From IMG/VR virus record IMGVR_UViG_3300014208_000027, positions 32,001 through 96,000 of that record: DNA of 64,000 nucleotides; one strand, given 5' to 3'. Numbering within the stretch: position 1 is the first letter of the stretch; each line of letters starts with the position of its first letter. The DNA comes from a virus (taxonomy: Duplodnaviria > Caudoviricetes). Under the pieces are notes generated by a model. That model made no database searches. It was given only the letters and a program-made list of their open reading frames with translations, and was not told the DNA's origin. The position numbers and the translations under genes are program-made. Shown here piece by piece: positions 15,548-38,513 of this stretch.

Positions 15548-16804
15548 ATGGAAAGAAAAATTAAAATTTTTGCATTAGGTGACGCATGTGTAGCTCCAAG
15601 CGGAGTTGGATCCCAACTTAAATACATTTTCGATGCTCTACTAAAGTCTGGAAAATTTATAATTAGACAATTTGGTGGGGCTGTAAAACATGCAAGTTAT
15701 CAACCTATCAAATTAGAAGAGTATGGGGATGATTTAATTATTTACCCCGTAGATGGCTTTGGGACTAAAGAAATGGTTAGAAGTTTTCTAAGGAATGAGA
15801 AGCCGGATATAGTGCTATTGATGGCTGACCCAAGATTCCTTACGTGGCTCTTTGAAATTGAAAACGAAATTAGACCGCTATGTCCTGTATTGTGGTATAA
15901 TGTGTGGGATAACCTACCTTTACCTACATTTAACAAACCTTATTATTTATCATGCGACAAACTTGTAAGTATTTCAAAACTTACTAGTGGAGTTAATAAA
16001 GAACTTACACCGGAAGTTGAACAAGAATATCTTGGTCATGCTGTAAATGATTCTATTTTCAAACCTTTACCACTGGAGGATGTGTTGCGTTTTCGTTCCG
16101 ACACTGTCCCAACAGCTAAAGGAAAAATGTTATTTTTTTGGAATAATCGGAATGCTAGAAGAAAAAATTCCGGAACATTAATTTTTTGGTTTAAAGAGTT
16201 CTTAGATATTATTGGACACGATAAAGCTAGTCTGCTTATGAAGACGAATGTAAAAGATGAAAATGGGCCTGATTTAGAAGCAATTATAAGGTTTTTGGGG
16301 TTAACACACGGAGAAATTCTTTTCGGTCAAGACGTTTACCCGCCGGAAGTGATTTCGCTTATGTACAATATGTCTGATTGCACAATAAACATTGCCAATA
16401 ACGAGGGGTTCGGTCTATCAACTTTAGAAAGTTTATCTTGTGGCAAGCCAATTATTTGCACTAAAACTGGAGGGCTTACCGAGCAGGTTGAGTATGAAGG
16501 TGGTCCCGTTGGTTTTGGTATTAAACCTGAGAGTCAAATGTATGCAGGGAGCCAGCAAATCTCATGGATTCTGGAAGATGGTATTACCAAATCTGCATTT
16601 CTCAAGGCCATGATTGATTTTTATAACCTTTCTCAGGAAGAGCGAGATGTTATGGGTCGTAACGGTTGTGAACATGTCTTGAAGAATTATAATTTTCAAC
16701 GATATGGCCAACGGTGGGTAGAAATCATGGAAGAAGTACATGAAAAACACGGTTCTTGGGATACTCGCAAAAATTATAATCCCGTTTACTTTAAAAAATT
16801 CTAA
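15548..16804 (+). CDS. Glycosyltransferase, GT4 (GT-B)
   Basis: SGVG, NRNARRK, NEGFGLSTLESLSCGKPII.T.TGGL.EQ (E-x7-E). Confidence 0.9.
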   Translation: MERKIKIFALGDACVAPSGVGSQLKYIFDALLKSGKFIIRQFGGAVKHASYQPIKLEEYGDDLIIYPVDGFGTKEMVRSFLRNEKPDIVLLMADPRFLTWLFEIENEIRPLCPVLWYNVWDNLPLPTFNKPYYLSCDKLVSISKLTSGVNKELTPEVEQEYLGHAVNDSIFKPLPLEDVLRFRSDTVPTAKGKMLFFWNNRNARRKNSGTLIFWFKEFLDIIGHDKASLLMKTNVKDENGPDLEAIIRFLGLTHGEILFGQDVYPPEVISLMYNMSDCTINIANNEGFGLSTLESLSCGKPIICTKTGGLTEQVEYEGGPVGFGIKPESQMYAGSQQISWILEDGITKSAFLKAMIDFYNLSQEERDVMGRNGCEHVLKNYNFQRYGQRWVEIMEEVHEKHGSWDTRKNYNPVYFKKF

Positions 16805-16817
16805 AAGGAGAATTTCA

Positions 16818-17030
16818 ATGGCAAAAGAAAAAAGTTTTGATCGTAGTAATGATTTTGATCTAGTTTATTTCCAAAATGAGCTTGACAAACTGACTCAAAC
16901 AGTTAATAATCTTTCTAGTGATCTTGCTATGCTTAAAACGCGCGTGACAGGTAATTTGGCAGATCAACTTGCAGAGATGAAACAACATATTGAACAATTA
17001 GAAAATGTTATGCGCAAACAAGGATTTTGA
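16818..17030 (+). CDS. Small coiled-coil protein (start set at ATG 16818)
   Basis: SD AAGGAG; heptads. Confidence 0.65.
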   Translation: MAKEKSFDRSNDFDLVYFQNELDKLTQTVNNLSSDLAMLKTRVTGNLADQLAEMKQHIEQLENVMRKQGF

Positions 17031-17031
17031 T

Positions 17032-17643
17032 ATGGCAACAAAGAAAATTGATGATACAATAAAAAAAACATTCGAAGAAGAACTCAATGTTATCTGTAAG
17101 CGCCATGAAAACAATGTAGCGCCTTGGGAAGTTGTAGCTGATCATCTTTGGCAAAGTTATAAAACATTTAGTGATACAGTTTTATGGCTTAAAAATGGAA
17201 GTTTTACCGAGGAACAAGAAAAAAAATGTCTTCTAGATTGCTGCAATACTAAAAAAGTTTTAGATAAGACTTCTGGTGTTGATGAAGTATTACTAGAAGA
17301 AAATTCTTTTCCACTTGTAGAAGATTATCAAGTTAAGCGTTATAATCGTGGGTATAGGGCTGGATATAGTGGAAAGTCTTTACCTTGGAATTTTACTAAA
17401 GAATACGTATTAGGGTTTGAAGATGGTAGAAATCAGTTAAAACTTGAAGAAGATAATAAAGTAGATTTCCAAAAGGAGCAAAAAAGTAAAAGTTACCAAC
17501 GAGGATATGACGCTGGTTATAATGGAGAGCCTTATAGGGGAAAGACAATCGATTATCAAGATGGATATGAATGGGGAGAAGCGGATTTTAAAGAAAATAA
17601 CAAAGACGGGAAAGTAAGTTCTGGAGTTATGTGGAAATTTTAG
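17032..17643 (+). CDS. Hypothetical protein with two Y.RGY..GY..G...Y..G repeats (RMF-like)
   Basis: YNRGYRAGYSG..EYVLGFEDG; YQRGYDAGYNG..DYQDGYEWG. Confidence 0.65.
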   Translation: MATKKIDDTIKKTFEEELNVICKRHENNVAPWEVVADHLWQSYKTFSDTVLWLKNGSFTEEQEKKCLLDCCNTKKVLDKTSGVDEVLLEENSFPLVEDYQVKRYNRGYRAGYSGKSLPWNFTKEYVLGFEDGRNQLKLEEDNKVDFQKEQKSKSYQRGYDAGYNGEPYRGKTIDYQDGYEWGEADFKENNKDGKVSSGVMWKF

Positions 17644-17662
17644 TTAATTTTGTAGGATACTG

Positions 17663-17983
17663 ATGAAAAACTTTTATTGTGAATGGTTTAATATATGCCA
17701 AAATGTAAAATTGTCTGAATCATTCATAGAGGAACACCAAGAAGAATTAGATTGGTCAATAGTATCTTCCTATCAAACTCTATCTGAAGACTTTATAGAG
17801 AAATTCAAAGATAAAGTGCATTGGGGACATATTTCAAGTAATCAATATTTGTCACAAGCCTTTATAGAACGATTTAAAAATAATGTAAATTGGGTGAATT
17901 TGTTTGCTAATAATAAGATATTGTTAAGAACTAGGCAATACTTCATGAATGAGTTTGTGCAAGGAAACAAAAAAGATGTCTAA
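17663..17983 (+). CDS. Tryptophan-repeat family protein
   Basis: Three ~23-aa repeats LS(E/Q).FIE.F...(D/H/N)W..(I/V)S..Q. Confidence 0.75.
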   Translation: MKNFYCEWFNICQNVKLSESFIEEHQEELDWSIVSSYQTLSEDFIEKFKDKVHWGHISSNQYLSQAFIERFKNNVNWVNLFANNKILLRTRQYFMNEFVQGNKKDV

Positions 17984-18305
17984 AAACGTAAAACAAAGAA
18001 AAATTTCCTTTGAGAGTGCACTTATAAATCTTTGCAAACAATATGAAGACGAATGGGATTGTCCATATTCTATTGTTTCTGAGCACCTTAGAAAAAATTT
18101 TATAACACTAAACGAAACGCTTCTTTTTCTGAAAAATAATACATCTTTTTTTAACCTACCTGTTTCAACCGTCATAGAAGACAAACACATTAAACGGTAT
18201 CAAAGAGGATATCAAGCGGCTTGGAAAGGTGGAAAATGTCTTGGCGATACGGAAGAATATAAAAAGGGCTATGAGGATGCAACACAAGAAAGTTTCTACT
18301 TTTAA
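17976..18305 (+). CDS. Paralogue of 17032..17643 with one RMF-like repeat
   Basis: Shared N-domain (FE..L..(I/L)CK..E...V..HL...T...L.(W/F)LKN) and YQRGYQA..G...EYKKGYEDA. Confidence 0.65.
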   Translation: MSKNVKQRKISFESALINLCKQYEDEWDCPYSIVSEHLRKNFITLNETLLFLKNNTSFFNLPVSTVIEDKHIKRYQRGYQAAWKGGKCLGDTEEYKKGYEDATQESFYF

Positions 18306-18323
18306 GTTTTAAGGGAAAATAAC

Positions 18324-20312
18324 ATGGCAAAGAAAAAAGTTTTACTTAAAGGACCAACCCTCGTTTTAGCAGGTTACGGACATCATTCGCGTACTGTACT
18401 AAGGTCATTACGAGCCTACGAAGATGTGTTCGACATTTACGTAGAACCACTAAACTGGGGGCATTGTTCGTGGCTCCATACTGATGATGAAGAAAGAAAA
18501 TATATTGATAGCCTGGTTATGAAGACTGCTCAATATCATCAAGTGAGTAATGGTAATCCTGAGTATGATATTATAGCGCATGTTTCAATTTTGGGAGAAT
18601 TTGAAAAAAAAGGTAGTGCTAGAATAGTTGGAATTACTGCTGGTGTTGAAAGTAATAAAATATCTCCTCAATGGCTTGAACGAACCCAAGTTTGTAACAA
18701 TATCATAACGATTTCTGAGCACGCTAAGAATGGTATAGTCAATACGACTTATGAAGCTAAAGACCAATTTGGTAACGTAGTAAAAGATTTTAAGTGTCAG
18801 ACACCAGTAAAAGTTATTGGTTATCCAGCTAATGCGTTTGAACCAGAACCTTTCCCAGAATTGGAACAAATTGATACAGATTTTAATTTTCTTACAATTT
18901 GCCAGTGGTCGCCAAGAAAGAACTTAGAGACGCTTATTTCTTCTTTTATTGAAGAACATCATGATAACTCTAATGTCGGGTTAGTATTAAAAGTAAATCT
19001 TGCTGCAAATTCTATAATTGACAGGACTCATACTGAGAATCGCTTGCAATATAATTTAAGCAAGTACCCCGATAAGAAGTGTAAAATTTATTTGATCCAC
19101 GGTGATTTGACTGAAAATAATCTTGCGGCTCTTTATTTGCATCCAAAAATTAAAGCTTATGTAAGTGTTGGACCGGAAGGATTCTGTTTACCTGCTTTTG
19201 ACGCTACCTTATATGGAATGCCTGTAATTACAATGCCTTGGGGTGGTTATACTGAATATTTGTATATGCCAATGAAGTCTAGCAAAGGGAAAGAATATAA
19301 TAAAGCTATGTTTGCTGAAATTGATTGGGAATTAAAGAAGATTCCTCAAGAAGCGGTTTGGGATGGGGTTTTGGTGGCTGATAGCTCATGGGGTGTAGTA
19401 AAGCCTGGAAGTTTGAAAGTTAGAATGAGGGATGTCCGAGGGTCATATCAAAAATACAAAGATATGGCTTTGAAGTTACAAGAGCATAATCTTGATAAGT
19501 TTAACGAAGAAAAAATCTATGCTGCCTATGCAAGTGAGATATTGGGAGAACCTATCAAACGGGTAACAATAGAAGAGTTGCCTGGAGTATCTCTTTTTAC
19601 TTCAGTATTTAGGTCAAAGTTGTATTTAGAGAATTTTTTCCAGGAAATGTCCAAACAAACTATTTTTAACAAATGTGAAATTTTACTTGGCCATCCAAAA
19701 ACCAGCCCAGATTTTGAGGAAGAGAAAAAAATAATTGACAGGTATATGGCTAAGCACAGTAACATCAGCTATTATGAACTAGAAGAAGATCCTGGTCTTT
19801 ATGGTGTATGGAATTATTTAATTCCTAAGACAAAATATGATATTATTAGTAATGCCAACACAGATGATGTTAGATCATATGACTGCTTAGAGAAGTGCAG
19901 TAGAGAGCTATATCTTAATCCAGAAGTCGATAGTTTGTACTTCGATCAAAAAATAACAAATGTTCCAAATCAGAATTTTTATGAAAACTCTTCAGAAGGT
20001 AGACAATATACTTTTGCGGAGTACTCTTTTGCTTATCTAAAAATGATGAATTTGACTTTTCACGCTATGCCTGTATATAGGAAGAGTATGCATGATAGGT
20101 GGGGTATGTATGATGCAAAGTATAAATCTAGCGGTGATTGGTGTTTTGCGTTAACTTGCGGCGCTGGTGGAGCAAAATTTAAAAAAATGGGAGAAGTTTT
20201 AGGTTTATATCTATTCAATGAGGTAGGTATCTCTACAAATCCGGCTAATTTTTCCTGGAAGCAACTTGAAGAAAAAGAAGTGTTTGAAAAATTTAAAGAT
20301 ATTAACTTATAG
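18324..20312 (+). CDS. Bifunctional glycosyltransferase (GT4-like N-domain + GT2 C-domain)
   Basis: GYG.HSR, RKNLE.L, EGFCLP.FDA..YG.PVI; C-domain ANTDD (DxD), FD..Y.SSGDW. Confidence 0.85.
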   Translation: MAKKKVLLKGPTLVLAGYGHHSRTVLRSLRAYEDVFDIYVEPLNWGHCSWLHTDDEERKYIDSLVMKTAQYHQVSNGNPEYDIIAHVSILGEFEKKGSARIVGITAGVESNKISPQWLERTQVCNNIITISEHAKNGIVNTTYEAKDQFGNVVKDFKCQTPVKVIGYPANAFEPEPFPELEQIDTDFNFLTICQWSPRKNLETLISSFIEEHHDNSNVGLVLKVNLAANSIIDRTHTENRLQYNLSKYPDKKCKIYLIHGDLTENNLAALYLHPKIKAYVSVGPEGFCLPAFDATLYGMPVITMPWGGYTEYLYMPMKSSKGKEYNKAMFAEIDWELKKIPQEAVWDGVLVADSSWGVVKPGSLKVRMRDVRGSYQKYKDMALKLQEHNLDKFNEEKIYAAYASEILGEPIKRVTIEELPGVSLFTSVFRSKLYLENFFQEMSKQTIFNKCEILLGHPKTSPDFEEEKKIIDRYMAKHSNISYYELEEDPGLYGVWNYLIPKTKYDIISNANTDDVRSYDCLEKCSRELYLNPEVDSLYFDQKITNVPNQNFYENSSEGRQYTFAEYSFAYLKMMNLTFHAMPVYRKSMHDRWGMYDAKYKSSGDWCFALTCGAGGAKFKKMGEVLGLYLFNEVGISTNPANFSWKQLEEKEVFEKFKDINL

Positions 20313-20352
20313 TAACGAAAAACATAACCTTTTGCAATCATTATCGTGACCC

Positions 20353-21750
20353 ATGCCGCTTACTAAAAGTAATAATGTTGCCAGTTACTCTTTATGGGGT
20401 TGTAATCCTAAATATTTAATCGGTGCGCTAGAAAATGCTCGTTTAATTCCTAAAATTTATGAAGGGTTTTCTACACGTTTTTTTGTTGATAATTTAGTAC
20501 CTACTTCTATTATTTATCAACTCAAAGATCACGGCGCCGAAATTATTTTTACTAACGAGTTTGGCACCGCTCGTAACGGTATGTTTTGGAGGTTCAAATT
20601 TCTTCCTAATGATGATATTGTCCTTGTCAGAGATTGTGATTCTAGACCTTCAGAGCGTGAATTTGCTTGCTACACTCATTGGTTAACCACAGATAAAAAT
20701 GTTTCTACTATTGTAGACCATCCGTATCATCAAGAGTTTGTCCTTCCAGGACTTATGAATTTTAAAGCTCAGCATTTTTTAAATCTTTATGATACACTTG
20801 TCAATGTCTCTAAAAATATTGAGTATGGCGTAGATTATCAGGCATTTAGAGATATTTCCCATATCATTTCCCCGCAATTGATAACTTATGGCCGTGATGT
20901 AAAAATTCTTCATAAGCGAAACAAATTACATTTCGTGGGTGAGGTTTTCAACGCCGATGGTTCTAATGTTCAAGCCCATACTGATGCTTTACGTCACCAC
21001 CTTGATCAGTCAGAATCTCATTTATATATTTACCATCATCTCGGTCTAGGTGATTGCTTTGACCTTAACGCAGCAGTTCGTATTTTATTAGATCAGCATA
21101 ATCTTGAGCGCGTCTATGTCTTTTGTAAGCGCAAGTTTGAGAAAATTATTTCTTATATGTATCGTGATAATACTTCTATTATAGTACTTCCTATTGATGC
21201 TGATACTTATGAACAAGAAGTTAAAAATGTCTCTACTACAATTGGTAACGACCCTAATTTTTTAATCATTGGTCATAATAATTATCAGGCTCATGGTGGT
21301 AGAGAGAAAGAGCTTGGTAAGGCATGTGCAGAACTATTTTATGAACAAATTGGTATTCCTTTTGAACGCCGTTTTACAGACTGGAAATTTGAACGTGATT
21401 TACTAGAAGAAGAACGTGTCTTTAATAAGTTAAATCCTACAGGTGAAGATTATATATTTGTTCATCATGACCCTTCAAGAGGTTTTACGATTCCAGATAA
21501 AAAAATATTTGACATTTACGGAAAATCTGTTAAACTCGTTTATAACGATATGAGTGAAAACCCTCTACACTTTTTTAAGATTTTAGAAGAAGCTAAACAA
21601 ATTCATAGCATGGAAAGTTCTTTTAAATCGTTAATAGAAGTGTTAGAATTTAAAAAAGATGTATGGTTTCACAACTTTAGGCCCGGAGCTAGTTCATTTC
21701 TTGGCAAAACAAGACAAAATTGGAAAGAGATAACATATGCCAACGTATAG
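20353..21750 (+). CDS. Two-domain putative glycosyltransferase
   Basis: N: SYSLWG, MFWRF, VRDCDSR, DHPYH; C: HHLGLGD, YMYRD, ESSF (GT-B-like). Confidence 0.65.
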   Translation: MPLTKSNNVASYSLWGCNPKYLIGALENARLIPKIYEGFSTRFFVDNLVPTSIIYQLKDHGAEIIFTNEFGTARNGMFWRFKFLPNDDIVLVRDCDSRPSEREFACYTHWLTTDKNVSTIVDHPYHQEFVLPGLMNFKAQHFLNLYDTLVNVSKNIEYGVDYQAFRDISHIISPQLITYGRDVKILHKRNKLHFVGEVFNADGSNVQAHTDALRHHLDQSESHLYIYHHLGLGDCFDLNAAVRILLDQHNLERVYVFCKRKFEKIISYMYRDNTSIIVLPIDADTYEQEVKNVSTTIGNDPNFLIIGHNNYQAHGGREKELGKACAELFYEQIGIPFERRFTDWKFERDLLEEERVFNKLNPTGEDYIFVHHDPSRGFTIPDKKIFDIYGKSVKLVYNDMSENPLHFFKILEEAKQIHSMESSFKSLIEVLEFKKDVWFHNFRPGASSFLGKTRQNWKEITYANV

Positions 21751-22042
21751 ATATGGATCAGTAATTTCAAGTTTAGAATTGACAACTAAAGATACTGTTC
21801 CTGGTTCTAACACTTTGAATGGTGAGATTCAGATTACTCATCACCAAGATCAAATTTTTATTGTGTCTTCTAAACAACCAATAGATTTAGATATTCCAGT
21901 TAAAAAATTAGGGCGACTACCACAAATTGATCTTACCATGGAAACTTATGTAAATCTTTCATCACTTTCTAATGATTTACAAGCTAAAGTTCGTGAAGAA
22001 CTGAAAGTACGCCGTGAAGTTAATGTCAGTCAAGAAACTTAA
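21737..22042 (+). CDS. Hypothetical protein
   Basis: Overlapping in-operon ORF. Confidence 0.6.
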   Translation: MPTYRYGSVISSLELTTKDTVPGSNTLNGEIQITHHQDQIFIVSSKQPIDLDIPVKKLGRLPQIDLTMETYVNLSSLSNDLQAKVREELKVRREVNVSQET

Positions 22043-22286
22043 ATACTTCACTTATGGCTTTGGTCCTCTCAACTATTCTCCAGAGCCAGGATCGGTTGAG
22101 TATGACTACTATCATTTCACAGAGAAAAATAGTGAGTTTTATAAAGTAAACTTTGACGGTGAAACATTTGATTGTTACATTGCTAATCCTAAAGAATTTT
22201 CACGCCTCAAAAATGAAGGAAAAATAGTCTCTACCTATGATAATGGGCTTGGAAAAGTATATCAAGTCAATCACAAATTGATGTAG
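22023..22286 (+). CDS. Hypothetical protein (start set at ATG 22023)
   Basis: In-operon ORF. Confidence 0.55.
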   Translation: MSVKKLKYFTYGFGPLNYSPEPGSVEYDYYHFTEKNSEFYKVNFDGETFDCYIANPKEFSRLKNEGKIVSTYDNGLGKVYQVNHKLM

Positions 22287-22295
22287 AGGTTCACA

Positions 22296-22451
22296 ATGCA
22301 TACTTATCGCAAACAATTAGAAGAAATTAAAAAAGGTACTCTTGATTGTACAAAACTTCTTGAACTTGCAGAATCTATGTTATTAAGTTTAGAAGAAGCA
22401 GATGAAGAAATTGAGTATTTGCAAGATGAGATTGGGTACCTCAATGCTTGA
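22296..22451 (+). CDS. 51-aa acidic coiled-coil protein (not in track)
   Basis: SD GAGG; MHTYRKQLEEIKKG...DEIGYLNA; stop overlaps next ATG. Confidence 0.6.
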   Translation: MHTYRKQLEEIKKGTLDCTKLLELAESMLLSLEEADEEIEYLQDEIGYLNA

Positions 22452-23340
22452 TAATAATACTTTAATTTGTTATAATATTTGGCCATTGTTTGCCGATCAT
22501 ATTCTTGATTATTCTAAAGAATATTATAAGCATTATGGTGTTGAACGTCTTCATAATAAAGATAATTTTATTCCTGAAAACGTTAAAGAAGGTGAGATTG
22601 TTTTTGTTAAAACCGATTTTATTGCTGATGGAACTTTCTATCAACATTTTTTCCCGGGCATAAAGAATAAGTTTAAATTGATAACTGGGAATTCTTCTTA
22701 TCAGCTTGGAAATCATACTCCACTTGATCAACTTAAATCAATTTTAGATAGTCCTAAACTTATTACTTGGTTTTGTACAAATCCACCAGACCTAAAACAC
22801 GAGAAAATAGTTAGTTTGCCAATAGGTTTTGAAGAGATGAGTCGTGCAGGTGGCAATCAGCTTTTACTAAATAATGCTCGTAAACGTCAACGATATTTTT
22901 GGCACAAGGAAGATAAAGTTTTCCTTCCTTATCATGGCTCTACTAATCCTCAACGCGCCTCACAAGTTAATTTTCTTTCTTCCTTTGAATTTGTCAAAGC
23001 ACAACATGAAAAGCAAGATATTTTAGATTATTTAAATGATATTGATAAGTATAAATTTGTGATATGCCTTGGAGGCGCTGGTAACGATCTTCATCGTATT
23101 TACGAAACTTATCTTATGGGAAGTATTCCTATTGTTCAAAAATCTTCTCTAGAAAAACTCTTTTCATTTTATGACTTACCCGTTGTAATGGTTGATAGAT
23201 GGGAAAATTTTGATAAGTTGTTAATTGCTACCTATAGAGCGTATTCTCCAGGCGACGTACTCGTTAAAAAACTAGAGAATGTAGGTAGATTTTTAATGGC
23301 GTGTAATTATAAAAATCTCTTTGAAACAGGAAATTTTTAA
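22444..23340 (+). CDS. Exostosin/GT47-like glycosyltransferase (start set at ATG 22444)
   Basis: SLPIGF, YKFVICL.GAG.DLHRIYE..LMGSIPIV. Confidence 0.7.
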   Translation: MLDNNTLICYNIWPLFADHILDYSKEYYKHYGVERLHNKDNFIPENVKEGEIVFVKTDFIADGTFYQHFFPGIKNKFKLITGNSSYQLGNHTPLDQLKSILDSPKLITWFCTNPPDLKHEKIVSLPIGFEEMSRAGGNQLLLNNARKRQRYFWHKEDKVFLPYHGSTNPQRASQVNFLSSFEFVKAQHEKQDILDYLNDIDKYKFVICLGGAGNDLHRIYETYLMGSIPIVQKSSLEKLFSFYDLPVVMVDRWENFDKLLIATYRAYSPGDVLVKKLENVGRFLMACNYKNLFETGNF

Positions 23341-30844: not shown

Positions 30845-31735
30845 ATGAACGCAAAATGTTATATGTGTAATGAAAATTCGCTGTTTAAAAGATCTGAAAG
30901 AGTTAGAGATAATGAATTTCTTAATGTTTTTCAGTGTTCTTCTTGTGGGTTAATCTCTCTTTCTGATTTTTCTCATATTTCTAATGAGTTTTACGAATCG
31001 TCTACTATGAGAAGGGGAGATGCAGAGCAGCAAATTGCTGAGATTTTAGAGGCTTCAAAAAATGATGATGAAAGAAGATTTGAATATGTTAAAAAAAAGA
31101 AAGAATTATTTAAGAAAGAAAAAGTTGTTCTAGATTATGGTTGTGGTGCCGGAGGGTTTTTATTAAATCTTAGCAAACTTATTGATAAAAGCAAATTGTA
31201 TGGAATTGAAATTGAAGACATGACACGGCGTTTTTTAAATGATTCTGGAATAAAAGTTGTTAAAAGCGTTGAAGAATATAAAAAAAATGTAGGGCAAAAA
31301 GTTGATTTTGTTTCAATGTTCCATGTGCTAGAACATCTTCCAGATCCCAAGAAGTGTTTAATTGAATTGAGAAGTATTTTAACGGATACTGCAAAAATAT
31401 TTATAGAGGTTCCAAACGCCGATGATGCTTTGTTGTCAATTTATAAATGTGAATCGTTTGCCAATTTTGTATTTTGGTCGCCCCATTTGTATACGTTCAA
31501 TATTAAGAGTTTTGAAATAATGGCAAAGGAAACTGGGTATAGTTTGAAAAATATTAAACAAATTCAAAGATATCCGATTTCAAATCATTTATACTGGTTA
31601 AAAGAAGGCAAGCCAAACGGCCATAAGATGTTTGACATTTTTAATTACGATAGGCTATCCTATGAATACGAAAAAGTCTTGCGAAAAAATAAAATATGTG
31701 ATACTTTAATGGTGGAATTTGAAGTTCAACCTTAA
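30845..31735 (+). CDS. SAM methyltransferase with N-terminal Zn ribbon
   Basis: CYMC..CSSC; VLDYGCGAG; HVLEHL.DP; EVPN. Confidence 0.85.
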   Translation: MNAKCYMCNENSLFKRSERVRDNEFLNVFQCSSCGLISLSDFSHISNEFYESSTMRRGDAEQQIAEILEASKNDDERRFEYVKKKKELFKKEKVVLDYGCGAGGFLLNLSKLIDKSKLYGIEIEDMTRRFLNDSGIKVVKSVEEYKKNVGQKVDFVSMFHVLEHLPDPKKCLIELRSILTDTAKIFIEVPNADDALLSIYKCESFANFVFWSPHLYTFNIKSFEIMAKETGYSLKNIKQIQRYPISNHLYWLKEGKPNGHKMFDIFNYDRLSYEYEKVLRKNKICDTLMVEFEVQP

Positions 31736-31763: not shown

Positions 31764-32600
31764 ATGAGAAATAAAAGAGTTTTTGTTATCGCAGAAATAG
31801 GGTTAAATGCAAATGGAGATGTTAGTATTGCTAAGGATTTAATTCTTAAATCTAAAGAATCTGGATGTGATGCAGTTAAATTCCAAAAACGAACAATTGA
31901 AGCGGTTTATTCTAAAGAAGAATTAGATTATTTTAGGGAAAGTCCTTGGGGTAATACAAATAGAAAGCAAAAAAACGGGCTTGAGTTTAGTAGAGAACAA
32001 TATGATGAAATAGACCAGTATTGTAAGCAAATAAACTTTTTGTGGTTTGCTTCCGCGTGGGATACTGAAAGTCAAGTTTTTCTAAGAAAATATGATCTGT
32101 TATATAACAAAATTGCCTCGGCTCTTTTGACACATAAAAAGTTGTTAAATATGGTTGCAGAAGAAAAGAAATATACTTTTATTTCAACAGGCATGAGCGA
32201 TTTAACACAGATCCGTGAGGCAGTAGAAGTTTTCAGATCTAAGGATTGTGAATTTGAATTGTTGCATTGCAACTCAACGTATCCAATGAAAAATGAAGAT
32301 GCAAATTTAAGAGTAATAAAAACTTTAAGAAACGAATTTGGGTGTGATGTTGGATATAGTGGTCATGAAACGGGAAGGGTTGTATCAGTAGCAGCAGTGG
32401 CTCTTGGGGCAACATCTATTGAACGACATATTACTTTGGATAAAACTATGTACGGGTCAGATCAAGCTGCTTCAATAGAAATTTCTGAATTAAAAAGACT
32501 TGTCGAAGACATTCGACAAGTTGAATTGGCTTTAGGTTCTTCAGAAAAGAGGGTCTTGGAAACAGAAATTCCAATTATGAAGAAACTGCGAAAGAATTGA
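31764..32600 (+). CDS. neuB: N-acetylneuraminate (nonulosonate) synthase, short form without SAF domain
   Basis: IAEIGLN.NG, AVKFQK, KIAS, ISTGM, LHCNSTYP, GYSGHE, IERHITLD. Confidence 0.9.
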   Translation: MRNKRVFVIAEIGLNANGDVSIAKDLILKSKESGCDAVKFQKRTIEAVYSKEELDYFRESPWGNTNRKQKNGLEFSREQYDEIDQYCKQINFLWFASAWDTESQVFLRKYDLLYNKIASALLTHKKLLNMVAEEKKYTFISTGMSDLTQIREAVEVFRSKDCEFELLHCNSTYPMKNEDANLRVIKTLRNEFGCDVGYSGHETGRVVSVAAVALGATSIERHITLDKTMYGSDQAASIEISELKRLVEDIRQVELALGSSEKRVLETEIPIMKKLRKN

Positions 32601-33301
32601 TGATTTCTGCTTTAATACCCGCTCGCGGCGGAAGCAAGGGGATTCCTAAAAAAAATATTTTGAATATATTCGGGTATCCATTGATTGCGTATTCCATTTC
32701 TGTTTGTAAAAAATGTAAAGATATAGATAAAGTTTACGTTTCTACTGACGATGAAGAAATTTCTGCCATTTCGGAGTTTTATGGAGCGACTGTTCTTAGA
32801 AGGCCAAGTGAGCTTGCAATGGATCTTTCAAATGATTATGGTGTTGTAAAACATTTTTTTGATTGTTTCCCGTGTGAAGAAGTTTCTTACATTAGACCAA
32901 CAACTCCTGCAAGAAACGTTGAAACACTCTCCAGTTGTATATCTTTTTATAAGAATAACAAATATAAATTAACTGGAGTTAGATCGGTTCATGAGTTGTC
33001 TGAGTCTCCATATAAATTTATAAAAATTGAAGATAGTGGATATTGTGGGGGTTTTTTTGAAAGTTTTAATGGGATAAAACAATATACAAATTTGCCAAGA
33101 CAGATGTTTCCAAAGGCGTACCACCCTAATGGTTATATCGATATACTTAAGAAAGAAACTATAGAAAAAGGAAGTGATTTTGGTGATAAAATTCTTCCAT
33201 TTTTGACTAGGAGAGTTTGCGAATTAGATATAGAAGAAGATATTGAATTCGTAAAAAATGATTTGGAAAGAAACGTAACTTTTGATATTTTTGAATCATG
33301 A
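32597..33301 (+). CDS. neuA: CMP-nonulosonate synthetase (cytidylyltransferase)
   Basis: IPARGGSKGIPKKN, VSTDD, RP.ELA.D, PT.P.R, NGYI, D...D. Confidence 0.9.
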   Translation: MMISALIPARGGSKGIPKKNILNIFGYPLIAYSISVCKKCKDIDKVYVSTDDEEISAISEFYGATVLRRPSELAMDLSNDYGVVKHFFDCFPCEEVSYIRPTTPARNVETLSSCISFYKNNKYKLTGVRSVHELSESPYKFIKIEDSGYCGGFFESFNGIKQYTNLPRQMFPKAYHPNGYIDILKKETIEKGSDFGDKILPFLTRRVCELDIEEDIEFVKNDLERNVTFDIFES

Positions 33302-34548
33302 TAAAAACTAAAAATAGAATAATTCAACCGGGGTTTGATGTTGAATCTTGTAGAATTCTTTCAGAAGAAAGAAAGAACATTGAAGATTATTCCGCTTGTT
33401 CTGAAATTCCGGTTTTATGGGATAAAGCGAAAAACTACTCTGTATATGACAACCTAGGAAACAAATGGATAGATTTAACTTCTGGAATTTTTGTCGCGAA
33501 TGCCGGACATTCAAATCCAAAAATCAAAAAAGCAATTAGAGAATGTCTTAAGAAAGATTTGTTATATTCTTTTTGTTATAATAATGAAATACGAGTGAAG
33601 TTTATAAAGAAACTTTTATCAATATCTCCTTCTTGTTTTAATAAAGCAATTATTTCTAATTCTGGGTCTGAAGCAACAGATACGGCTTACAAGTTGATAA
33701 AGGTATGGGGTAGACAATTTTCTCCACACAAAAATAGAATAATTTCATTTAAAGGCGCTTATCACGGAAGGTGTTTGAGTAGTTGTTTTCTTAGTAGATC
33801 AAAAGAGTATTCTGAATGGGCAGGCTTTGAGAACGATGTTACTTTCTTAGATTTTCCAGAAAGAGATGAAGATTTCCCGAGAGAATCTATAGGTGAAAAT
33901 GTAGCTGCGTTTGTAATTGAAACATATCAAGGCTGGAGTGCGTCGTTTTTACCAATTCAATATATGAAACAATTATATGAGTATGCTAAAGAGAAAGACG
34001 TTCTTATTGTTTTTGATGAGATTCAATCTGGGTTCTATCGAACTGGGAAGTTATATGGTTATATGAATTACGGCGAATATTTGGAGCCAGATATCATTAC
34101 TCTTGGCAAAGGTATTTCCTCATCGCTCCCAATGTCCGCTGTTTTGAGCAGAAAAGAAATTGTAGATATGGACAAAGGCATGGATTACTCTGGAACACAT
34201 CCAGGCGATCCTATTTGTTGTTATGCTGCTTTAGCAAATTTGGAGTTTCTTCATGAAAGTGTTTTCCAAAGAAAACTTAAAAACAAAATTAAAGTATTTT
34301 CTAAAATTAAAGAAATAGAAAAATATAATTGTGTGCAAAAAGTAAATGTCTTTGGTATGGTTGCCGGAATAATTTTTAGTTCAAAAGAGATTGCGGATAG
34401 AGTTGTGTATGGATGTATAAATAATGGAGTTTTCCCCGTGTATACTTATAAAAATTCTATAAAACTTGGACCACCTCTTACGATAAGTAATTCTGCAATA
34501 AAAGAAGCTTTTGGTGTTTTGGAAACGGAAATTAAAAAACATGAGTAG
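33298..34548 (+). CDS. Class III PLP aminotransferase
   Basis: D..GN.WIDL.SG, NSGSEA, AYHGR, FDEIQSG..RTG, PDIITLGKG. Confidence 0.85.
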   Translation: MIKTKNRIIQPGFDVESCRILSEERKNIEDYSACSEIPVLWDKAKNYSVYDNLGNKWIDLTSGIFVANAGHSNPKIKKAIRECLKKDLLYSFCYNNEIRVKFIKKLLSISPSCFNKAIISNSGSEATDTAYKLIKVWGRQFSPHKNRIISFKGAYHGRCLSSCFLSRSKEYSEWAGFENDVTFLDFPERDEDFPRESIGENVAAFVIETYQGWSASFLPIQYMKQLYEYAKEKDVLIVFDEIQSGFYRTGKLYGYMNYGEYLEPDIITLGKGISSSLPMSAVLSRKEIVDMDKGMDYSGTHPGDPICCYAALANLEFLHESVFQRKLKNKIKVFSKIKEIEKYNCVQKVNVFGMVAGIIFSSKEIADRVVYGCINNGVFPVYTYKNSIKLGPPLTISNSAIKEAFGVLETEIKKHE

Positions 34549-35197
34549 CATTTTAAAGTCTTCAAAATATCTTGAGGTTACCTATGAGAAAAGAGGCGTA
34601 GGATATCCTCGGGCTCTTTCAGGTTGGATTAAAAAGAATATTTTCAAGAAAACGGGTCGGTTACTTGATGTTGGTTATGGTCATGGGGATTATTTGCGTG
34701 CTTTTTCAGACTTACAATATAATGTTTGTGGAGCAGATCTTTCTCCGACTCTTATTCGTCCGTTTGATTGTAGAATAGTTGATATCGAAGAAAGACAATA
34801 CCCAAAAGAAGAATTTGATTTTGTATTTTCTAAATCCGTTATAGAACACGTAAAAAATGTTGACAATGCTACAAAGTTTCTGTATGATAGTCTTAAAGTA
34901 GGAGGAAAACTCGTTGTTATGACTCCATCTTGGGAATATACAAGTTTTGGCCCGTTCTATAATGATCACACTCACGTAACTCCATTTACAAAAACTTCTC
35001 TAGAAAATATATTGAAGATGCATAATTTCAAGAATATTCAAGTCGATTATTTCTATCAACTTCCGTTTGTTTGGAAATATCCATTCTTGAAATATTTTTG
35101 CAAACTTATCAATTTTTTAAAAATTCCATACAAAGATTCTAAATTGATTAGATTTTCTAGAGAAGTTATGTTGCTTGCAATTGCGGACAAATTATAA
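34541..35197 (+). CDS. Class I SAM methyltransferase
   Basis: LLDVGYG.G, FDFVFSKSVIEHV, DHTHV.PFT. Confidence 0.85.
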   Translation: MSSILKSSKYLEVTYEKRGVGYPRALSGWIKKNIFKKTGRLLDVGYGHGDYLRAFSDLQYNVCGADLSPTLIRPFDCRIVDIEERQYPKEEFDFVFSKSVIEHVKNVDNATKFLYDSLKVGGKLVVMTPSWEYTSFGPFYNDHTHVTPFTKTSLENILKMHNFKNIQVDYFYQLPFVWKYPFLKYFCKLINFLKIPYKDSKLIRFSREVMLLAIADKL

Positions 35198-35198
35198 A

Positions 35199-35603
35199 AT
35201 GAAGATTAGACATGTCGGACTTGTTGTTAAGAACTTGGGAGAGTCTATCCTGTTTTATGAGTCAATCGGTTTTAGGGTTTTTAGTAACGAAATTGAACAA
35301 GGAAATCATATTTCCAATTTTTTCAGCGAAGAAGGGTTACAAGTTCATATAGCAAAACTTAAAAATGACTTTGGAGAGTGTTTGGAACTTTTGTGGTTTG
35401 GTAACGGCACAAAAAAGAAAAAAAATAGCTTGAAAAGTCTTGGACTCACGCATATTGCGCTAACCGTAAGAGACAGTGGAGACCTGTATAGCAGTTTTAA
35501 AAAATGTTGCGAAGTGCAAACAACGCCCACTGGTCACAAAGTTCTTTTCGTGCAAGATCCCAATGGCGTTTTTCTAGAGCTTGTTCAGGATCCAAGATGC
35601 TAA
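35199..35603 (+). CDS. VOC/glyoxalase-family protein (epimerase-like)
   Basis: RHVGLVV.NL..S..FY, LEL, HIAL.V, DPNG..LELV. Confidence 0.85.
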   Translation: MKIRHVGLVVKNLGESILFYESIGFRVFSNEIEQGNHISNFFSEEGLQVHIAKLKNDFGECLELLWFGNGTKKKKNSLKSLGLTHIALTVRDSGDLYSSFKKCCEVQTTPTGHKVLFVQDPNGVFLELVQDPRC

Positions 35604-36388
35604 ACGGCCTAGCAAACATCAACATAGAACTGACTGACATTTGTAACAAAAAATGTTGGATGTGTGGTCGGCGCAAGAGAGAAAAGCAATATCCAGATAT
35701 CATCAAGTCATACGGTTATATGGATTTTTCTTTAGTTGAACAAATTTCTAAACAAGTTCCCGCAAATATTATGGTTCAATTCCATAATAATGGTGAGGCA
35801 TTTTTGTACCCTCGTTTTGGGGAAGCAATTAGTTTGTTTGGGAAGCAAATTAAAAATGTTGTTACCAATGGGAAACTTCTTCTTGAAAAATATGATGAGA
35901 TAGTTAATAACCTTGATACGATAGCAATTTCTGTTTTTGAGAGTGACCCAGAAGCAGAAGAACAATATAAAATTGTTAACGAATTTGTGTCAAGAAAGGG
36001 TTTGAATAAGCCACTTATGATTATTAGAGCAAATGGAAATGTTGATATCCGCAGATATGAGCAGATGGGTTTGAAGGTTGCAAGGAGAATCTTACATGCT
36101 CCAGAAGGCTCGTTTAACTATGTTGGAAAGAATCCAACCATTCCAGAACACGGTATATGTTTAGATTTTCTTACGCACCTTGCAATTAGTAAAAATGGCG
36201 ATGTTTCAATTTGTGTTAGATATGATCCGAATAGAAAAGGTGTTCTTGGAAATATCAAAAATAATTCATTAGAAGAATTGTGGAATTCTGAATTGAGAAT
36301 GGAATGGATGGGATGTCATAAACAAGGTTGCAGAGATAAAATTCCTTTATGCTCCGGTTGTGAATTTTATGGAGTACCGACACAATAG
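35597..36388 (+). CDS. Radical SAM/SPASM-domain protein (start set at ATG 35597)
   Basis: ELTDICNKKCWMC; GE..L.P; TNG; C-terminal C..DG.VSIC..GNI..SLEE.W..C..C. Confidence 0.85.
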   Translation: MLNGLANINIELTDICNKKCWMCGRRKREKQYPDIIKSYGYMDFSLVEQISKQVPANIMVQFHNNGEAFLYPRFGEAISLFGKQIKNVVTNGKLLLEKYDEIVNNLDTIAISVFESDPEAEEQYKIVNEFVSRKGLNKPLMIIRANGNVDIRRYEQMGLKVARRILHAPEGSFNYVGKNPTIPEHGICLDFLTHLAISKNGDVSICVRYDPNRKGVLGNIKNNSLEELWNSELRMEWMGCHKQGCRDKIPLCSGCEFYGVPTQ

Positions 36389-36408
36389 TAATGTAATTTA
36401 TAGGAAAT

Positions 36409-37314
36409 ATGATGATTAAAAATTTTGATATAACAATAGAACTTATCGTAGATGCTATGCGAAATCAAGCTTTAGAAGCACACACCTCTAAGGCAGAGGT
36501 TGACATATCAGGGGGAGTAGATAGTGCTGTTGTTGCGGCATTATCTTGTAGAGCGTTTGGCAGGGAGAATGTAATTGGAGTTTACAGCTCTATTAATTCT
36601 TCTGACTCTTCACGTCGTCTTGCAAAAATGGTCGCTGACAAGTTTAAATTCCATTTTATTGAGCTAGATCTTTCCGAAGCTTACCGACAAATCACAATGC
36701 AAGTTATGGTTTCTTTTTGGAAAGCTGGTTTGGTTTGTCCGAATCAAGGAGACGTTGATTCTAAAAAAACATATGGTGGACTTAGAAGTTGTTTGCGTGC
36801 TCCTGTTGGAAGATTTATAAATAGGATGTTCGGCGGCGGAATACGAGAAGGTACTGGTAATCGCGATGAAGATGAACTGATTCGTTTTTATCAGAAAGGT
36901 GGAGATGGAGAAGTTGACAGTAATTGGATCGAAGGTTTGTTTAAGGGTGAGGTTTGGGAACTTGCGAAACATTTAGGAGTCCCTGATGAAGTTATCAACG
37001 CAACGCCAACACCTGATTTATGGGGTGGAGAGGTTCACAGTGATGAGAAAGAACTTGAAGACATCACTGGGGTGAAATTGACTTACACACGTCCTGGTGG
37101 ACCAATGGGAACGATTGAATGGGCAAGTCGAGAGAATTCGGAGAATGACTGTATCATAAATCAAGATCTCGACTTGAATGTTTTTGGTTATGATGAGAAG
37201 CAGCTTAAAATCATTAATGCAATGCGGAAATTAGAAAAATCAAGTCGACACAAGGGTTGTATGCCTCCGTATATTTGTAGAGAGGTTCTTATTGAAAAAG
37301 GAGCTGTGGAATGA
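36409..37314 (+). CDS. nadE: NH3-dependent NAD+ synthetase
   Basis: ISGGVDSAVV, R...R, GTGN.DE, FY.K.GDG.VD, L.K.EV..LAK.LG, PTPDLW, DE.E. Confidence 0.85.
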   Translation: MMIKNFDITIELIVDAMRNQALEAHTSKAEVDISGGVDSAVVAALSCRAFGRENVIGVYSSINSSDSSRRLAKMVADKFKFHFIELDLSEAYRQITMQVMVSFWKAGLVCPNQGDVDSKKTYGGLRSCLRAPVGRFINRMFGGGIREGTGNRDEDELIRFYQKGGDGEVDSNWIEGLFKGEVWELAKHLGVPDEVINATPTPDLWGGEVHSDEKELEDITGVKLTYTRPGGPMGTIEWASRENSENDCIINQDLDLNVFGYDEKQLKIINAMRKLEKSSRHKGCMPPYICREVLIEKGAVE

Positions 37315-38513
37315 AGGTTTTGTTCGCTAATTTTTTTAATGATGAAGCTTACGGAATGAGAATTTTGCATTCTATTGTTTCAGAAAGGTATGATTGTAAA
37401 ATTCTTTTCATTAAAGAAAATAATGAACAATTAATAACGAAAGTTATTTCTAATTACTCTCCTGATGTGTTGTGTGTCAGTCTTACTTCCCCTAATTTTT
37501 GTTTGTACAAAAAACTTTATGAGGGTATTAGAAAATCTATGAATGGTGGTTTGATTGTTCTGGGTGGTTGGCATCCCACATTAAACCCAAATTCCTGTGC
37601 TCCATATTGTGATGTTGTTGTTCAAGGTGAGGCAGAAAAAAATATACTGAAGATTCTTGATGATATAGAAAGAAAATCTTTTTTAAATTTATATACGTTT
37701 TCGTCGCTTTCTAAAGATATTAATCACCCTCTTTTTGTATTTAATGGGAATAATTGCATAACAATTGAAAAAGGACAAATTCTTTTCGGTGAACCTTATT
37801 CTAGAAACGAACGCTATGGAACAATGATGGGTAGAGGTTGCCCTTATAGTTGTACTTATTGTTCTAATTCATTTATGAAAGAAAAATATAATAACTGGAC
37901 GAAAATTAGATATAGAAACTTTGAAAAGGTTTTGGAAGAACTTTTAGTGGTTCGTAAATTGTTTCCAAATATTAAAAAAATAAACTTCTATGATGAGGTA
38001 TTCTTTCAGACAGAACAGTATGATTCTTTTTTAAGGCAATATAAGCAGGAGATTGGTCTACCATTTTTTTGTATGTTTTACCCTGGAACTGTTTCTGAGC
38101 CTATGGTAGAAAAATTAAAAGAAGCAGGAATGGTCGGAGTATGGTTGGGTGTTCAATCTGGATCTGAGAGAGTTAGGAGACACGTCTTTGAAAGACGATA
38201 TTCAAACGAGAAACTAATGAAACAGATTCTCATGTTTAAAAAACATGACGTTGATGTAAGATATGATTTTATTTTCAGTAATCCGTTTGAAACCAAGGAA
38301 GAATATCAAGAGACAATACAGTTAATAAAAACATTTCCAAAGCCATTTTCCATTAATATGTTTGAACTTAAGTGGTTTCCAAATACAAAAATAACAAAAA
38401 TGGCTTTGGAAAGTGGTTATTCAATAACTACAGAAGATGAAATATTTTATGAAAACCCTTCATACTTGATAGATGAAGAAAAACAAAAAGAAATCTTACA
38501 GGAAATCGGTTAG
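37311..38513 (+). CDS. B12-binding radical SAM enzyme (class B)
   Basis: GGWHPT..P, GEAE; GRGCPYSCTYC; DE.F; GVQSGSERVR. Confidence 0.9.
   Translation: MKVLFANFFNDEAYGMRILHSIVSERYDCKILFIKENNEQLITKVISNYSPDVLCVSLTSPNFCLYKKLYEGIRKSMNGGLIVLGGWHPTLNPNSCAPYCDVVVQGEAEKNILKILDDIERKSFLNLYTFSSLSKDINHPLFVFNGNNCITIEKGQILFGEPYSRNERYGTMMGRGCPYSCTYCSNSFMKEKYNNWTKIRYRNFEKVLEELLVVRKLFPNIKKINFYDEVFFQTEQYDSFLRQYKQEIGLPFFCMFYPGTVSEPMVEKLKEAGMVGVWLGVQSGSERVRRHVFERRYSNEKLMKQILMFKKHDVDVRYDFIFSNPFETKEEYQETIQLIKTFPKPFSINMFELKWFPNTKITKMALESGYSITTEDEIFYENPSYLIDEEKQKEILQEIG

Follow-up and report, generated by a model that had tools for sequence, protein, structure and literature searches.

We analysed a window of 64,000 nucleotides (bases 32001-96000) of the IMG/VR record IMGVR_UViG_3300014208_000027, a phage genome of 203,498 bp with 34% GC that CheckV rates as 100% complete. 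An island of genes for glycan biosynthesis and tailoring lies at positions 15548-38513 of this window and makes up 11% of the genome. It comprises 27 open reading frames (ORFs), all on the plus strand, and at most junctions the genes overlap by 1-8 nt, in agreement with the overlap-coupled arrangement described by the original prediction, which had been made from the nucleotide sequence alone. The gene classes that it had named were all present at their places when Pfam, NCBIfam, PDB-sequence, Atlas and fold searches were carried out (Table 1, where genes are listed by the positions that also identify them in the text), and its count of at least six glycosyltransferase (GT)-like genes or domains can now be given as six genes with eight domains. 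Two genes of the island had been overlooked, one coding for a NadE-like PP-loop enzyme (36409) and the other for a DUF6165 protein (23340).

The genome carries the hallmarks of T4-type phages, namely a gp23 major capsid protein, a gp20 portal, baseplate wedge proteins, PhoH and a PD-(D/E)XK nuclease. Its nearest cultured relatives on the basis of the capsid protein (40-48% identity) are Flavobacterium phage immuto, Microcystis phage Mel-JY01 and Rhodothermus phage RM378, and the uncultured huge phage LR756508 is likewise close. It belongs to the Immutovirus-like, "Far-T4" part of the T4 superfamily, and capsid genes 55-67% identical over their full length are found on more than 596 IMG/VR contigs. 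The worry that the contig might be bacterial or chimeric in this region was tested, and the phage hallmarks, the CheckV result and the synteny of the flanks show that it is neither. In fact, the flanking synteny recurs in 75-80 of the best 80 relatives and an independent assembly has the same gene order, so the island is not a chimera and the record represents a complete T4-like phage.

Table 1. Features of the glycan island and its right edge (window coordinates).
Feature	Coordinates	Strand	Evidence or remark
CTATTTA heptamer, putative late-promoter motif	15348..15354	+	precedes a 58-aa ORF (15370-15546) abutting the first GT
Conserved head GT4 (GT-B) glycosyltransferase	15548..16804	+	Pfam PF00534, E 6.7e-13
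Three small ORFs (212, 106, 118 aa) between head GTs	17005..18305	+	no family found
Second GT4-like (GT-B) domain fused to third, GT-A (GT2-like) domain	18324..20312	+	
Two-domain viral GT: GT8/DUF5672-like GT-A + GT9-like GT-B	20353..21750	+	Atlas 0.91
Two small ORFs (101, 90 aa)	21737..22286	+	no family found
A075L/GT114-like (exostosin-like) GT-B glycosyltransferase	22402..23340	+	PDB 8avq/8asa/8q8i
DUF6165 protein	23340..23741	+	Pfam E 3.3e-10; family also in giant-virus clusters
DegT-family sugar aminotransferase (LegC/PseC-like)	23734..24843	+	Pfam E 3.8e-99
DegT-family sugar 3-dehydratase dependent on pyridoxamine phosphate (PMP), ColD/RfbH type	24840..26018	+	RfbH 226 bits
GT2 (GT-A) glycosyltransferase	26015..26752	+	weak Pfam; Atlas features 0.99
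B12-binding radical S-adenosylmethionine (SAM) enzyme, class B	26749..28020	+	Pfam PF04055, PF02310
Nucleoside diphosphate (NDP)-sugar 6-dehydrogenase (Ugd family)	28033..29283	+	three Pfam domains
Class I SAM methyltransferase	29258..30109	+	Pfam
GT29-like nonulosonate (sialyl-type) transferase	30081..30827	+	Pfam, motifs, fold
Class I SAM methyltransferase	30845..31735	+	Pfam
NeuB-family nonulosonate synthase, short form without SAF domain	31764..32600	+	Pfam PF03102, E 1.5e-73
Cytidine monophosphate (CMP)-nonulosonate synthetase (CTP_transf_3)	32597..33301	+	PF02348, E 5.7e-22
Class III aminotransferase	33298..34548	+	Pfam E 3.1e-69
Class I SAM methyltransferase, partner of NeuB/NeuA/VOC module on contig L005	34511..35197	+	
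VOC/glyoxalase-fold protein	35175..35603	+	Pfam
Radical SAM enzyme with SPASM domain	35504..36388	+	Pfam
NadE-like PP-loop ATP-dependent amidoligase	36409..37314	+	Pfam E 4.1e-27
Second B12-binding radical SAM enzyme	37311..38513	+	Pfam, NCBIfam
EndoVII-type nuclease	38548..38967	+	absent from 80 relatives
TnpB/IS605 OrfB	39458..40633	+	absent from 80 relatives
Right-flank gene p40979, probable phage sigma factor	40979..41698	+	49-59% identical in 12 relatives

The island is one allele of a hypervariable glycan locus which occupies a fixed genome position and is a core feature of a very abundant, widespread lineage. Relatives were collected with an alignment-based scan that used the head GT (15548), and the comparison covered the best 80 loci and 13 genomes, including this one and ten more long genomes that were fetched. 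The head GT is 48-56% identical in at least 375 IMG/VR contigs, and at E ≤ 1e-10 its homologues make up at least 7854 protein clusters. When all genes were compared by tblastn with two long relatives, the order was PhoH, a protein that we call p12040, the nuclease, the head GT4 (~50% identity), the second GT (~40%) and then variable DNA, and on the right flank p40979 (55-59%), p44435 and p50004, followed by the baseplate genes. In 75-77 of the best 80 loci, the head GT has PhoH, p12040, the nuclease and the second GT as neighbours. In the 13 genomes, the distance from the head GT to p40979 ranges from 12.2 to 28.4 kb, and 296 of the 303 island genes are co-directional. These 303 genes form 150 blastp families, 111 of which are confined to one genome. 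Among the shared families, GTs are present in all 13 genomes, SDR proteins in 12 (they are missing only here), DegT in nine, Ugd in seven, NeuB in six and NeuA in five; NeuB, present also in only two of eight further complete genomes, was ruled out as a universal component. The third GT domain (GT-A) is found in 10 of the 13 genomes and is fused to the second GT here and in G001. The GC content of the islands is usually 1-7 points below that of the right flank.

A Pfam tally of 60 family representatives showed that the variable pool is a toolbox for sugar tailoring, which includes GT2, GT4, GT8 and GT11 enzymes, FkbM and other methyltransferases, GFO/IDH/MocA oxidoreductases, PfkB kinases, formyl- and carbamoyltransferases, an APS kinase, an NeuC-type epimerase, a transketolase and a RuBisCO-like protein. 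Sulfated, carbamoylated and formylated sugars, together with an unusual sugar-phosphate chemistry, are hinted at in the relatives, whose cassettes (L186-L205) were also seen to include transketolase halves, RpiB, a PhyH dioxygenase and a RuBisCO-large-chain-like protein. In two relatives that were fully annotated, the island content is completely unlike that of the window: the island of G001 comprises five methyltransferases, an aldolase resembling transaldolase, NeuA together with a short NeuB, and a 2-hydroxyacid dehydrogenase, and that of G002 a PseB-, PseC-, PseH- and PseI-like set with a second short NeuB. When the island was compared by megablast with 50,697 phage records, no match was obtained.

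One contig, L207, assembled independently from another sample and representing the nearest relative known, has the same gene order as the window with one extra ORF. Identities are 81-82% for three GTs (82% for the two-domain GT), 70% for DegT, 56% for the fusion GT and 37% for the 212-aa protein. The shared order, combined with unequal identities and the extra ORF, indicates that this allele is real and evolves by insertion and recombination. The low value of the fusion GT (18324-20312 in the window, 5980-7971 in L207) suggests local recombination or accelerated change in one of the head enzymes.

As regards the GTs, the best PDB match of the head enzyme is the chlorovirus protein B736L (E 8e-16, full length). 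The fusion GT (18324), whose own Pfam matches are below cut-off, gave a profile match to the same B736L in its GT-B part (E 1.5e-6), and for its GT-A part PF00535 matches the 56%-identical homologue in L207. Its N-terminal part is ~40% identical in 12 of 12 relatives and its C-terminal part is homologous to the third gene that stands separately in relatives. For the second head GT, the next PDB match after B736L was the Staphylococcus aureus protein O-GlcNAc transferase SdgB (E 7.6e-5; PMC8561734), but this match was too weak and generic to serve as evidence. With phmmer, PDB yielded nothing useful for the fusion GT or for the two-domain GT (20353), whose Atlas features relate it to virus-dominated GT8/GT9 clusters and whose structure splits at about residue 220. 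The GT2 enzyme (26015) also resembles viral clusters, those of GT2, with a template modelling (TM) score of 0.87.

The enzyme encoded by ORF 22402 had been described as GT47-like. The label A075L/GT114-like is more fitting, as the protein matches the A075L structures with an E value of 1.8e-13 over 186 residues (87-272). A075L, a GT114 enzyme, is the xylosyltransferase of the N-glycan on the Vp54 capsid protein, a glycan that enzymes of the virus assemble in the cytoplasm (PMC11571054; PMC5408694); its key residues are the catalytic Asp73 and the phosphate-binding Arg158 and Arg208 (PMC11571054). Arg208, in an HR motif, is kept in ORF 22402, an arginine lies one position off Arg158, and a serine takes the place of Asp73 in the alignment.

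The protein encoded at 30081 matches PF00777 with 50.4 bits (cut-off 23) over a stretch spanning motif L. L-like and S-like sialylmotif blocks and the invariant histidine of motif VS (His201, here in H-x4-E) are kept in six homologues, and the disulfide cysteines of luminal GT29 enzymes are not conserved. An AlphaFold model of this protein (pLDDT 73.6, pTM 0.80) retrieved mammalian GT29 sialyltransferases at ranks 1-23 of a Foldseek search (E values down to 4e-7, TM score ~0.5), followed by Cst-II of family GT42. Only five homologues were detectable among 5.8 billion proteins, and locus searches with this protein or the two-domain GT as single query found no close relatives. On contig L005, from an unrelated metagenome, genes for GT29, NeuA, NeuB, VOC, SDR and a methyltransferase sit together, and because of this grouping the VOC protein and one methyltransferase can be assigned to the nonulosonate module.

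Both the synthase and the CMP-activating enzyme of a nonulosonate pathway are present in the island. The synthase (31764) is below the NCBIfam cut-offs for NeuB and PseI and has a pseudaminic acid synthase as best PDB match (E 1.8e-38); neither it nor the CMP-transferase reaches an NCBIfam equivalog cut-off for a specific nonulosonic acid. For the precursor steps, the island gave no Pfam match to Epimerase_2 (NeuC-type) or GNAT, genes that relatives carry. The original prediction had proposed a complex, methylated, nonulosonate-capped glycan on virion proteins, for shielding or mimicry, and this interpretation is supported in part. The enzymes do form a phage-encoded, self-contained and soluble set for building a glycan, whereas the virion acceptor and the role in shielding or mimicry are hypothetical; the cap itself is plausible, given NeuB, the CMP-transferase, the GT29-fold transferase and the recurrence of the module on L005.

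Among the other sugar-modifying enzymes, the DegT protein at 23734 has the Schiff-base lysine in a GNK motif and matches the NCBIfam models LegC (287 bits) and PseC (263 bits), both below cut-off. In the DegT protein at 24840, YGH aligns with this GNK, histidine thus taking the place of the Schiff-base lysine, and RfbH is the best NCBIfam match. A histidine instead of the catalytic lysine marks the ColD/E1-type PMP-dependent sugar 3-dehydratases. The enzyme is therefore a PMP-dependent 3-dehydratase, which is what its earlier ColD-like label implied. The Ugd-family protein (28033) scores 184.9 bits with TIGR03026 (cut-off 189.8). The B12-binding radical SAM enzyme at 26749, for which no NCBIfam equivalog was found, is probably a C-methylase or a rearranging enzyme. 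The NadE-like enzyme (36409) exceeds the cut-off of TIGR00552 (90.9 versus 63.65 bits) and its PDB matches are NH3-dependent NAD synthetases; a homologue lies in the island of a divergent relative (G037, loci L204/L205), directly after a Ugd-family dehydrogenase. This enzyme may amidate a sugar carboxylate, making a uronamide rather than NAD.

Membrane steps were looked for in the whole genome. In a hydropathy scan of all its ORFs, no multi-pass membrane protein with more than four hydrophobic segments was found; no ORF of the island has two or more such segments, and none of the 303 island proteins of the 13 genomes has more than two. A Bac_transf priming transferase was not found either. On these grounds Wzx, Wzy, WaaL, PglB, WecA and ABC permeases are missing. 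The claim that no Wzx/Wzy or ABC exporter is visible was thus borne out, and can be extended to the priming transferase.

The head GT also connects the island to cultured phages. Among the 50,697 phage records it occurs only in immuto (four records), Mel-JY01, LR756508 and RM378, all of them top capsid relatives, and the hosts of the cultured ones, Flavobacterium, Microcystis and Rhodothermus, belong to three phyla. In immuto, the annotation over ~11 kb reads PD-(D/E)XK nuclease, GT, GT, GT2, aminotransferase, methyltransferase, mannosyltransferase, epimerase and GT, so that nuclease, GT and GT follow one another as they do here. In the literature that we searched, nothing was found on virion glycans of RM378 or immuto, or on Mel-JY01.

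The timing of expression was approached through promoter motifs. The heptamer CTA(A/T)TTA occurs 57 times in the genome, as compared to 144 ± 12 copies expected (~2.5-fold depletion), and for 30 of the 57 copies (53%) a start codon follows within 40 nt, often with only 4-5 nt between the motif and the ATG. Many of the genes that follow are large or encode virion structural proteins. This position close to starts and the nature of the genes indicate a genuine promoter element, probably a late one. The right-flank protein p40979 has no Pfam or PHROG match and is related (Atlas 0.98) to viral clusters bearing Sigma70_r2; in 11 of 12 relatives, the start of its gene is followed within 850 nt by a CTAWTTA motif, located where the baseplate operon begins (44424-44430 in the window). 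The protein p40979 is a candidate for a late sigma factor with its cognate promoter. Inside the island, a scan for sigma70 promoters and terminators gave results not above the shuffled expectation. The early genes of the genome were seen to have TTGACA-N17-TATAAT promoters, which argues for a host with canonical sigma70 and not of the Bacteroidota type.

The locus provides a set of soluble enzymes and has a conserved head followed by a variable body; genes for export or for a known type of handle on DNA were not found. Soluble enzymes without membrane steps fit assembly on an acceptor that is soluble or exposed on the cytoplasmic face. The best reading, to which we give a probability of roughly 45%, is that the acceptor would be the phage's own virion proteins and the island a self-contained cytoplasmic glycan factory. 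This reading is favoured because chlorovirus enzymes are the best solved relatives of both head GTs and of ORF 22402, because the distribution of the head GT follows that of the capsid clade through hosts of several phyla, and because DNA is an unlikely target (see below) while the capsid protein has a hypervariable insertion rich in serine and threonine. The major capsid protein (590 aa; genome C1:162217-163989) is encoded ~115 kb away from the island, too far for 30 capsid-bearing fragments that were searched for the head GT to extend to it. Approximately residues 130-325, between its two Pfam Gp23 matches, fall outside the model, and residues ~181-300 are hypervariable and Ser/Thr-enriched, with a conservation of 0.42-0.55 in 80 relatives as compared to 0.8-0.97 elsewhere. 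This insertion is a candidate acceptor surface.

Among known systems, one of the closest is that of chlorovirus PBCV-1, where Vp54 is glycosylated by soluble multi-domain viral GTs and methyltransferases (A064R, A075L, A111/114R and the A546L/B736L family) in the cytoplasm, with no endoplasmic reticulum, Golgi or lipid carrier (PMC5408694; PMC11571054). The likeness extends to a conserved core with variable decorations and to the sequence similarity of B736L and A075L to GTs of the island. The island differs in that it comes from a bacterial virus, that the similarity is distant and does not include Asp73 of A075L, and that a glycan on the capsid is putative in this lineage. It also has a nonulosonate module, a ColD-type dehydratase and B12 radical SAM enzymes in addition.

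If virion proteins are the acceptor, the locus might work as follows. The three conserved head GT domains (GT-B, GT-B and GT-A) would lay a constant core on a conserved acceptor, and the variable cassettes would then extend and decorate this core. In this genome the cassettes would be the 3-deoxygenating ColD-type enzyme, the aminotransferases, the NDP-sugar dehydrogenase with the NadE-like amidoligase, and C-, O- and N-methylating enzymes, with NeuB, the CMP-transferase and the GT29-like protein as capping module. Glycosylation of one or more virion proteins would take place in the cytoplasm, ahead of particle assembly or in the course of it, as it does in chloroviruses and mycobacteriophages, and strain-specific surface glycan "serotypes" would result. 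A constant core with strain-specific elaboration best explains a locus with a constant three-GT head, interchangeable cassettes and no export machinery, and from this we infer the division of labour between core and periphery; the sugar identities and the acceptor are likewise inferred. A tentative and more specific form of the proposal is that of an O-antigen-like "serotype" locus for the particle itself, in which the three GT domains would prime a virion protein, perhaps on the capsid insertion, and freely exchanged cassettes, sialic-acid-like caps from an animal-type GT29 enzyme included, could give rise to hundreds of distinct virion glycans.

Several observations weigh against a virion acceptor. 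Both the virion glycan of this lineage and its acceptor are hypothetical. The similarity to chlorovirus enzymes is remote, the function of B736L is not known, and ORF 22402 has a serine where A075L has the catalytic Asp73. The co-occurrence of head GT and capsid may simply reflect vertical inheritance. Soluble GT4 and GT2 enzymes of O-antigen and core pathways act on lipid-linked acceptors found in all phyla, such as undecaprenyl diphosphate (Und-PP)-sugars or lipid A-core, and since peripheral O-antigen GTs are soluble and their acceptors universal, neither solubility nor co-occurrence with the capsid bars the use of a host carrier, flippase and ligase. No SDR epimerase or dehydratase was found in the whole genome, nor a recognised NeuC or PseB step; without an SDR 4,6-dehydratase or these steps the phage depends on sugar nucleotides of the host, and the DegT enzymes would use host-made keto-sugar nucleotides as substrates, or keto groups introduced by the radical SAM enzymes. 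The island also sits in a part of the genome that looks early or middle, upstream of the putative late sigma gene. The original prediction had noted a late-type heptamer heading the region, and a CTATTTA copy is indeed present at 15348, 200 nt ahead of the head GT, but the motif is missing from the island head in all of 12 relatives. In most of them the head GT gene starts no more than ~30 nt after the nuclease gene, and in G038 a sigma70-type promoter (TTGACA-N17-TATATT) is found at the island head. For this reason, late expression of the island was dropped as an argument.

The alternative that survives best is remodelling of the host envelope, which we regard as unlikely. The soluble GTs would act on the host's Und-PP-glycan or lipid A-core, and host flippase and ligase would display an altered lipopolysaccharide (LPS) or capsule that prevents superinfection, keeps progeny from adsorbing to lysing cells or hinders grazing. 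The position upstream of the sigma-like gene, the sigma70-type promoter in one relative and the reliance on host keto-sugar nucleotides all speak for it, as does the resemblance to bacterial O-antigen and capsule loci, which share the enzyme families, conserved edges, hypervariable content and, often, a GC content lower than that of the flanks. Such loci depend on Wzx/Wzy or ABC systems, though, and an initiating phosphoglycosyltransferase, a flippase, a polymerase, a chain-length regulator, an ABC transporter or a ligase was found in none of the 13 islands; priming transferase, flippase, polymerase, ligase and ABC permease are lacking in this genome as a whole. Selectivity for the cell's own unit is usual in the Wzx and ABC systems of hosts. 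Moreover, the head GTs are ~50% identical across the lineage and recognisable in phages of three host phyla, and their nearest solved relatives are enzymes of viral capsid glycans, not of bacterial LPS. A further point in favour of envelope remodelling is that the T4-like cyanomyoviruses P-SSM2, S-SCSM1 and S-SCSM2R carry, in plastic genome regions, up to 22 such genes, including 13 GTs together with epimerases and KdsA/KdsB, which have been read as surface modifiers (PMC12801897), the customary view of such "LPS genes". These phages belong to a different T4-like clade (capsid ~32-37% identical), whereas the genes of the island lie together in a single block whose position is fixed and whose head has three conserved GT domains, with NeuB and a GT29-like transferase in place of the enzymes for 3-deoxy-D-manno-octulosonate (Kdo).

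Improbable, in our view, is another soluble target, whether non-virion phage or host proteins, modified for takeover or anti-defence, or a free glycoside resembling an aminoglycoside. The solubility of all the enzymes is compatible with it, and the DegT pair, the class III aminotransferase, the radical SAM enzymes and the methyltransferases resemble aminoglycoside tailoring sets, with weak NCBIfam matches to AprD4 and PhpK-type families. Against this, the island has no cyclitol synthase and no resistance or export gene; NeuB, the CMP-transferase and the sialyltransferase-fold enzyme point to a capped glycoconjugate, and a conserved three-GT head with a hypervariable body is typical of surface glycans.

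As to DNA, neither a thymidylate synthase (ThyA) homologue (PF00303) nor a C5 DNA methylase (PF00145) was found in the genome, with searches whose controls gave hits, and TGT/DpdA is likewise absent from it; the search for TET/JBP (PF12851) had no match, but its controls were silent too and it is uninformative. The absence of a ThyA homologue agrees with the claim that no base-hydroxymethylase is visible. Radical SAM and pyridoxal phosphate enzymes occur in thymidine hypermodification, and the two head GTs match the Pfam family "GT4-conflict" weakly, below threshold. In virion DNA of immuto, which has a homologous island, liquid chromatography with UV and mass spectrometric detection showed canonical dA, dC and dT and full replacement of dG by fdPreQ1, and no glycosylated nucleoside was reported (bioRxiv 10.1101/2023.04.13.536721). 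Genome content and the sugar-free nucleosides of immuto make DNA an unlikely glycan target, and the view that the glycan does not serve DNA modification is strengthened. That the GTs build an oligosaccharide on a modified base against restriction can thus hardly be right, even though phage GT clusters are known that put mono- to trisaccharides on 5-hydroxymethylcytosine (hmC) or 5-hydroxycytosine (5hoC) (bioRxiv 10.1101/2023.12.21.572611; PMC13326640): these systems (T4 hmC, RB69/DLP3 arabinosyl-5hoC, MT/5mYOX/GT clusters) share LPS-related GTs and sometimes their own donor synthesis with the island, but they need a ThyA-like enzyme or a methylase plus TET, and a nonulosonate cap and six to eight GT domains go far beyond any known DNA glycan.

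Two other systems in which proteins are glycosylated in the cytoplasm can be compared with a virion-directed island. According to Freeman et al. (2023), as cited in PMC12619734 and PMC12801897, GTs of mycobacteriophages decorate the capsid and tail-tube subunits of the phages themselves; few GT genes are involved, as compared to ~27 genes with their own donor synthesis here, and hosts and phage types differ. The flagellin O-glycosylation islands of Campylobacter and other bacteria modify proteins with tailored nonulosonic acids of the pseudaminic (Pse) or legionaminic (Leg) type by means of Maf/DUF115 enzymes. The relative G002 resembles them in its Pse-like set, mentioned above, and in two weak, sub-threshold Maf-like (MptE/Maf) proteins. 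The window gave no Pfam match to Maf/DUF115 (PF01973), lacks PseB, PseG and PseH, and has a GT29-like transferase, of a family that acts on glycan acceptors.

Further observations concern the neighbourhood. The EndoVII-type nuclease and the TnpB/IS605 OrfB at the right edge, which are separated by two small conserved ORFs, are recent mobile-element arrivals specific to this genome, since none of 80 relatives carries either. At the same edge, a 103-aa protein (40668-40979) with an N-terminal hydrophobic segment is kept in seven of the 13 genomes and an 85-aa protein (39154-39411) in nine. On the left, 75 of the 80 relatives keep p12040 (228 aa; 12040-12726) directly upstream of the nuclease; its match to the metalloprotease domain of the anthrax lethal-factor type (ATLF) stays below threshold (E 7e-6; 26.3 bits, cut-off 27.4). 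Beyond the right flank, a 996-aa protein (45842-48832) with a late motif ahead of it contains a VanY-type D-Ala-D-Ala carboxypeptidase domain (E 1.7e-6), and is probably a cell-wall hydrolase of the baseplate or tail tip.

Glycan genes as phage cargo and virus-encoded virion glycosylation are known as such; chloroviruses, mimiviruses and, with few genes, mycobacteriophages are established cases of viruses that glycosylate their own particles. New with respect to the literature searched are the fixed hypervariable locus with its conserved head, its abundance, the cytoplasmic GT29-type capping module and the link to a cultured system. The large "LPS" gene sets of T4-like cyanophages have been unexplained for two decades. 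A conserved three-GT head with an extremely variable body bears the mark of diversifying selection acting on a surface glycan. Unusual enzymes can also be drawn from the island, among them a cytoplasmic GT29-type transferase, a NadE-like putative sugar amidoligase and B12 radical SAM enzymes for sugar tailoring. Since the cultured phage immuto carries the same architecture at a fixed locus, virion, host surface and DNA can be directly tested as sites of the glycan. If the glycan is on the virion, particles of this lineage would have glycan serotypes, with consequences for adsorption, aggregation, grazing, evasion of defence and the way in which metagenomic diversity is read. If true, the particle "serotype" locus would be the bacterial-virus counterpart of chlorovirus capsid glycosylation, with immuto as the test system.

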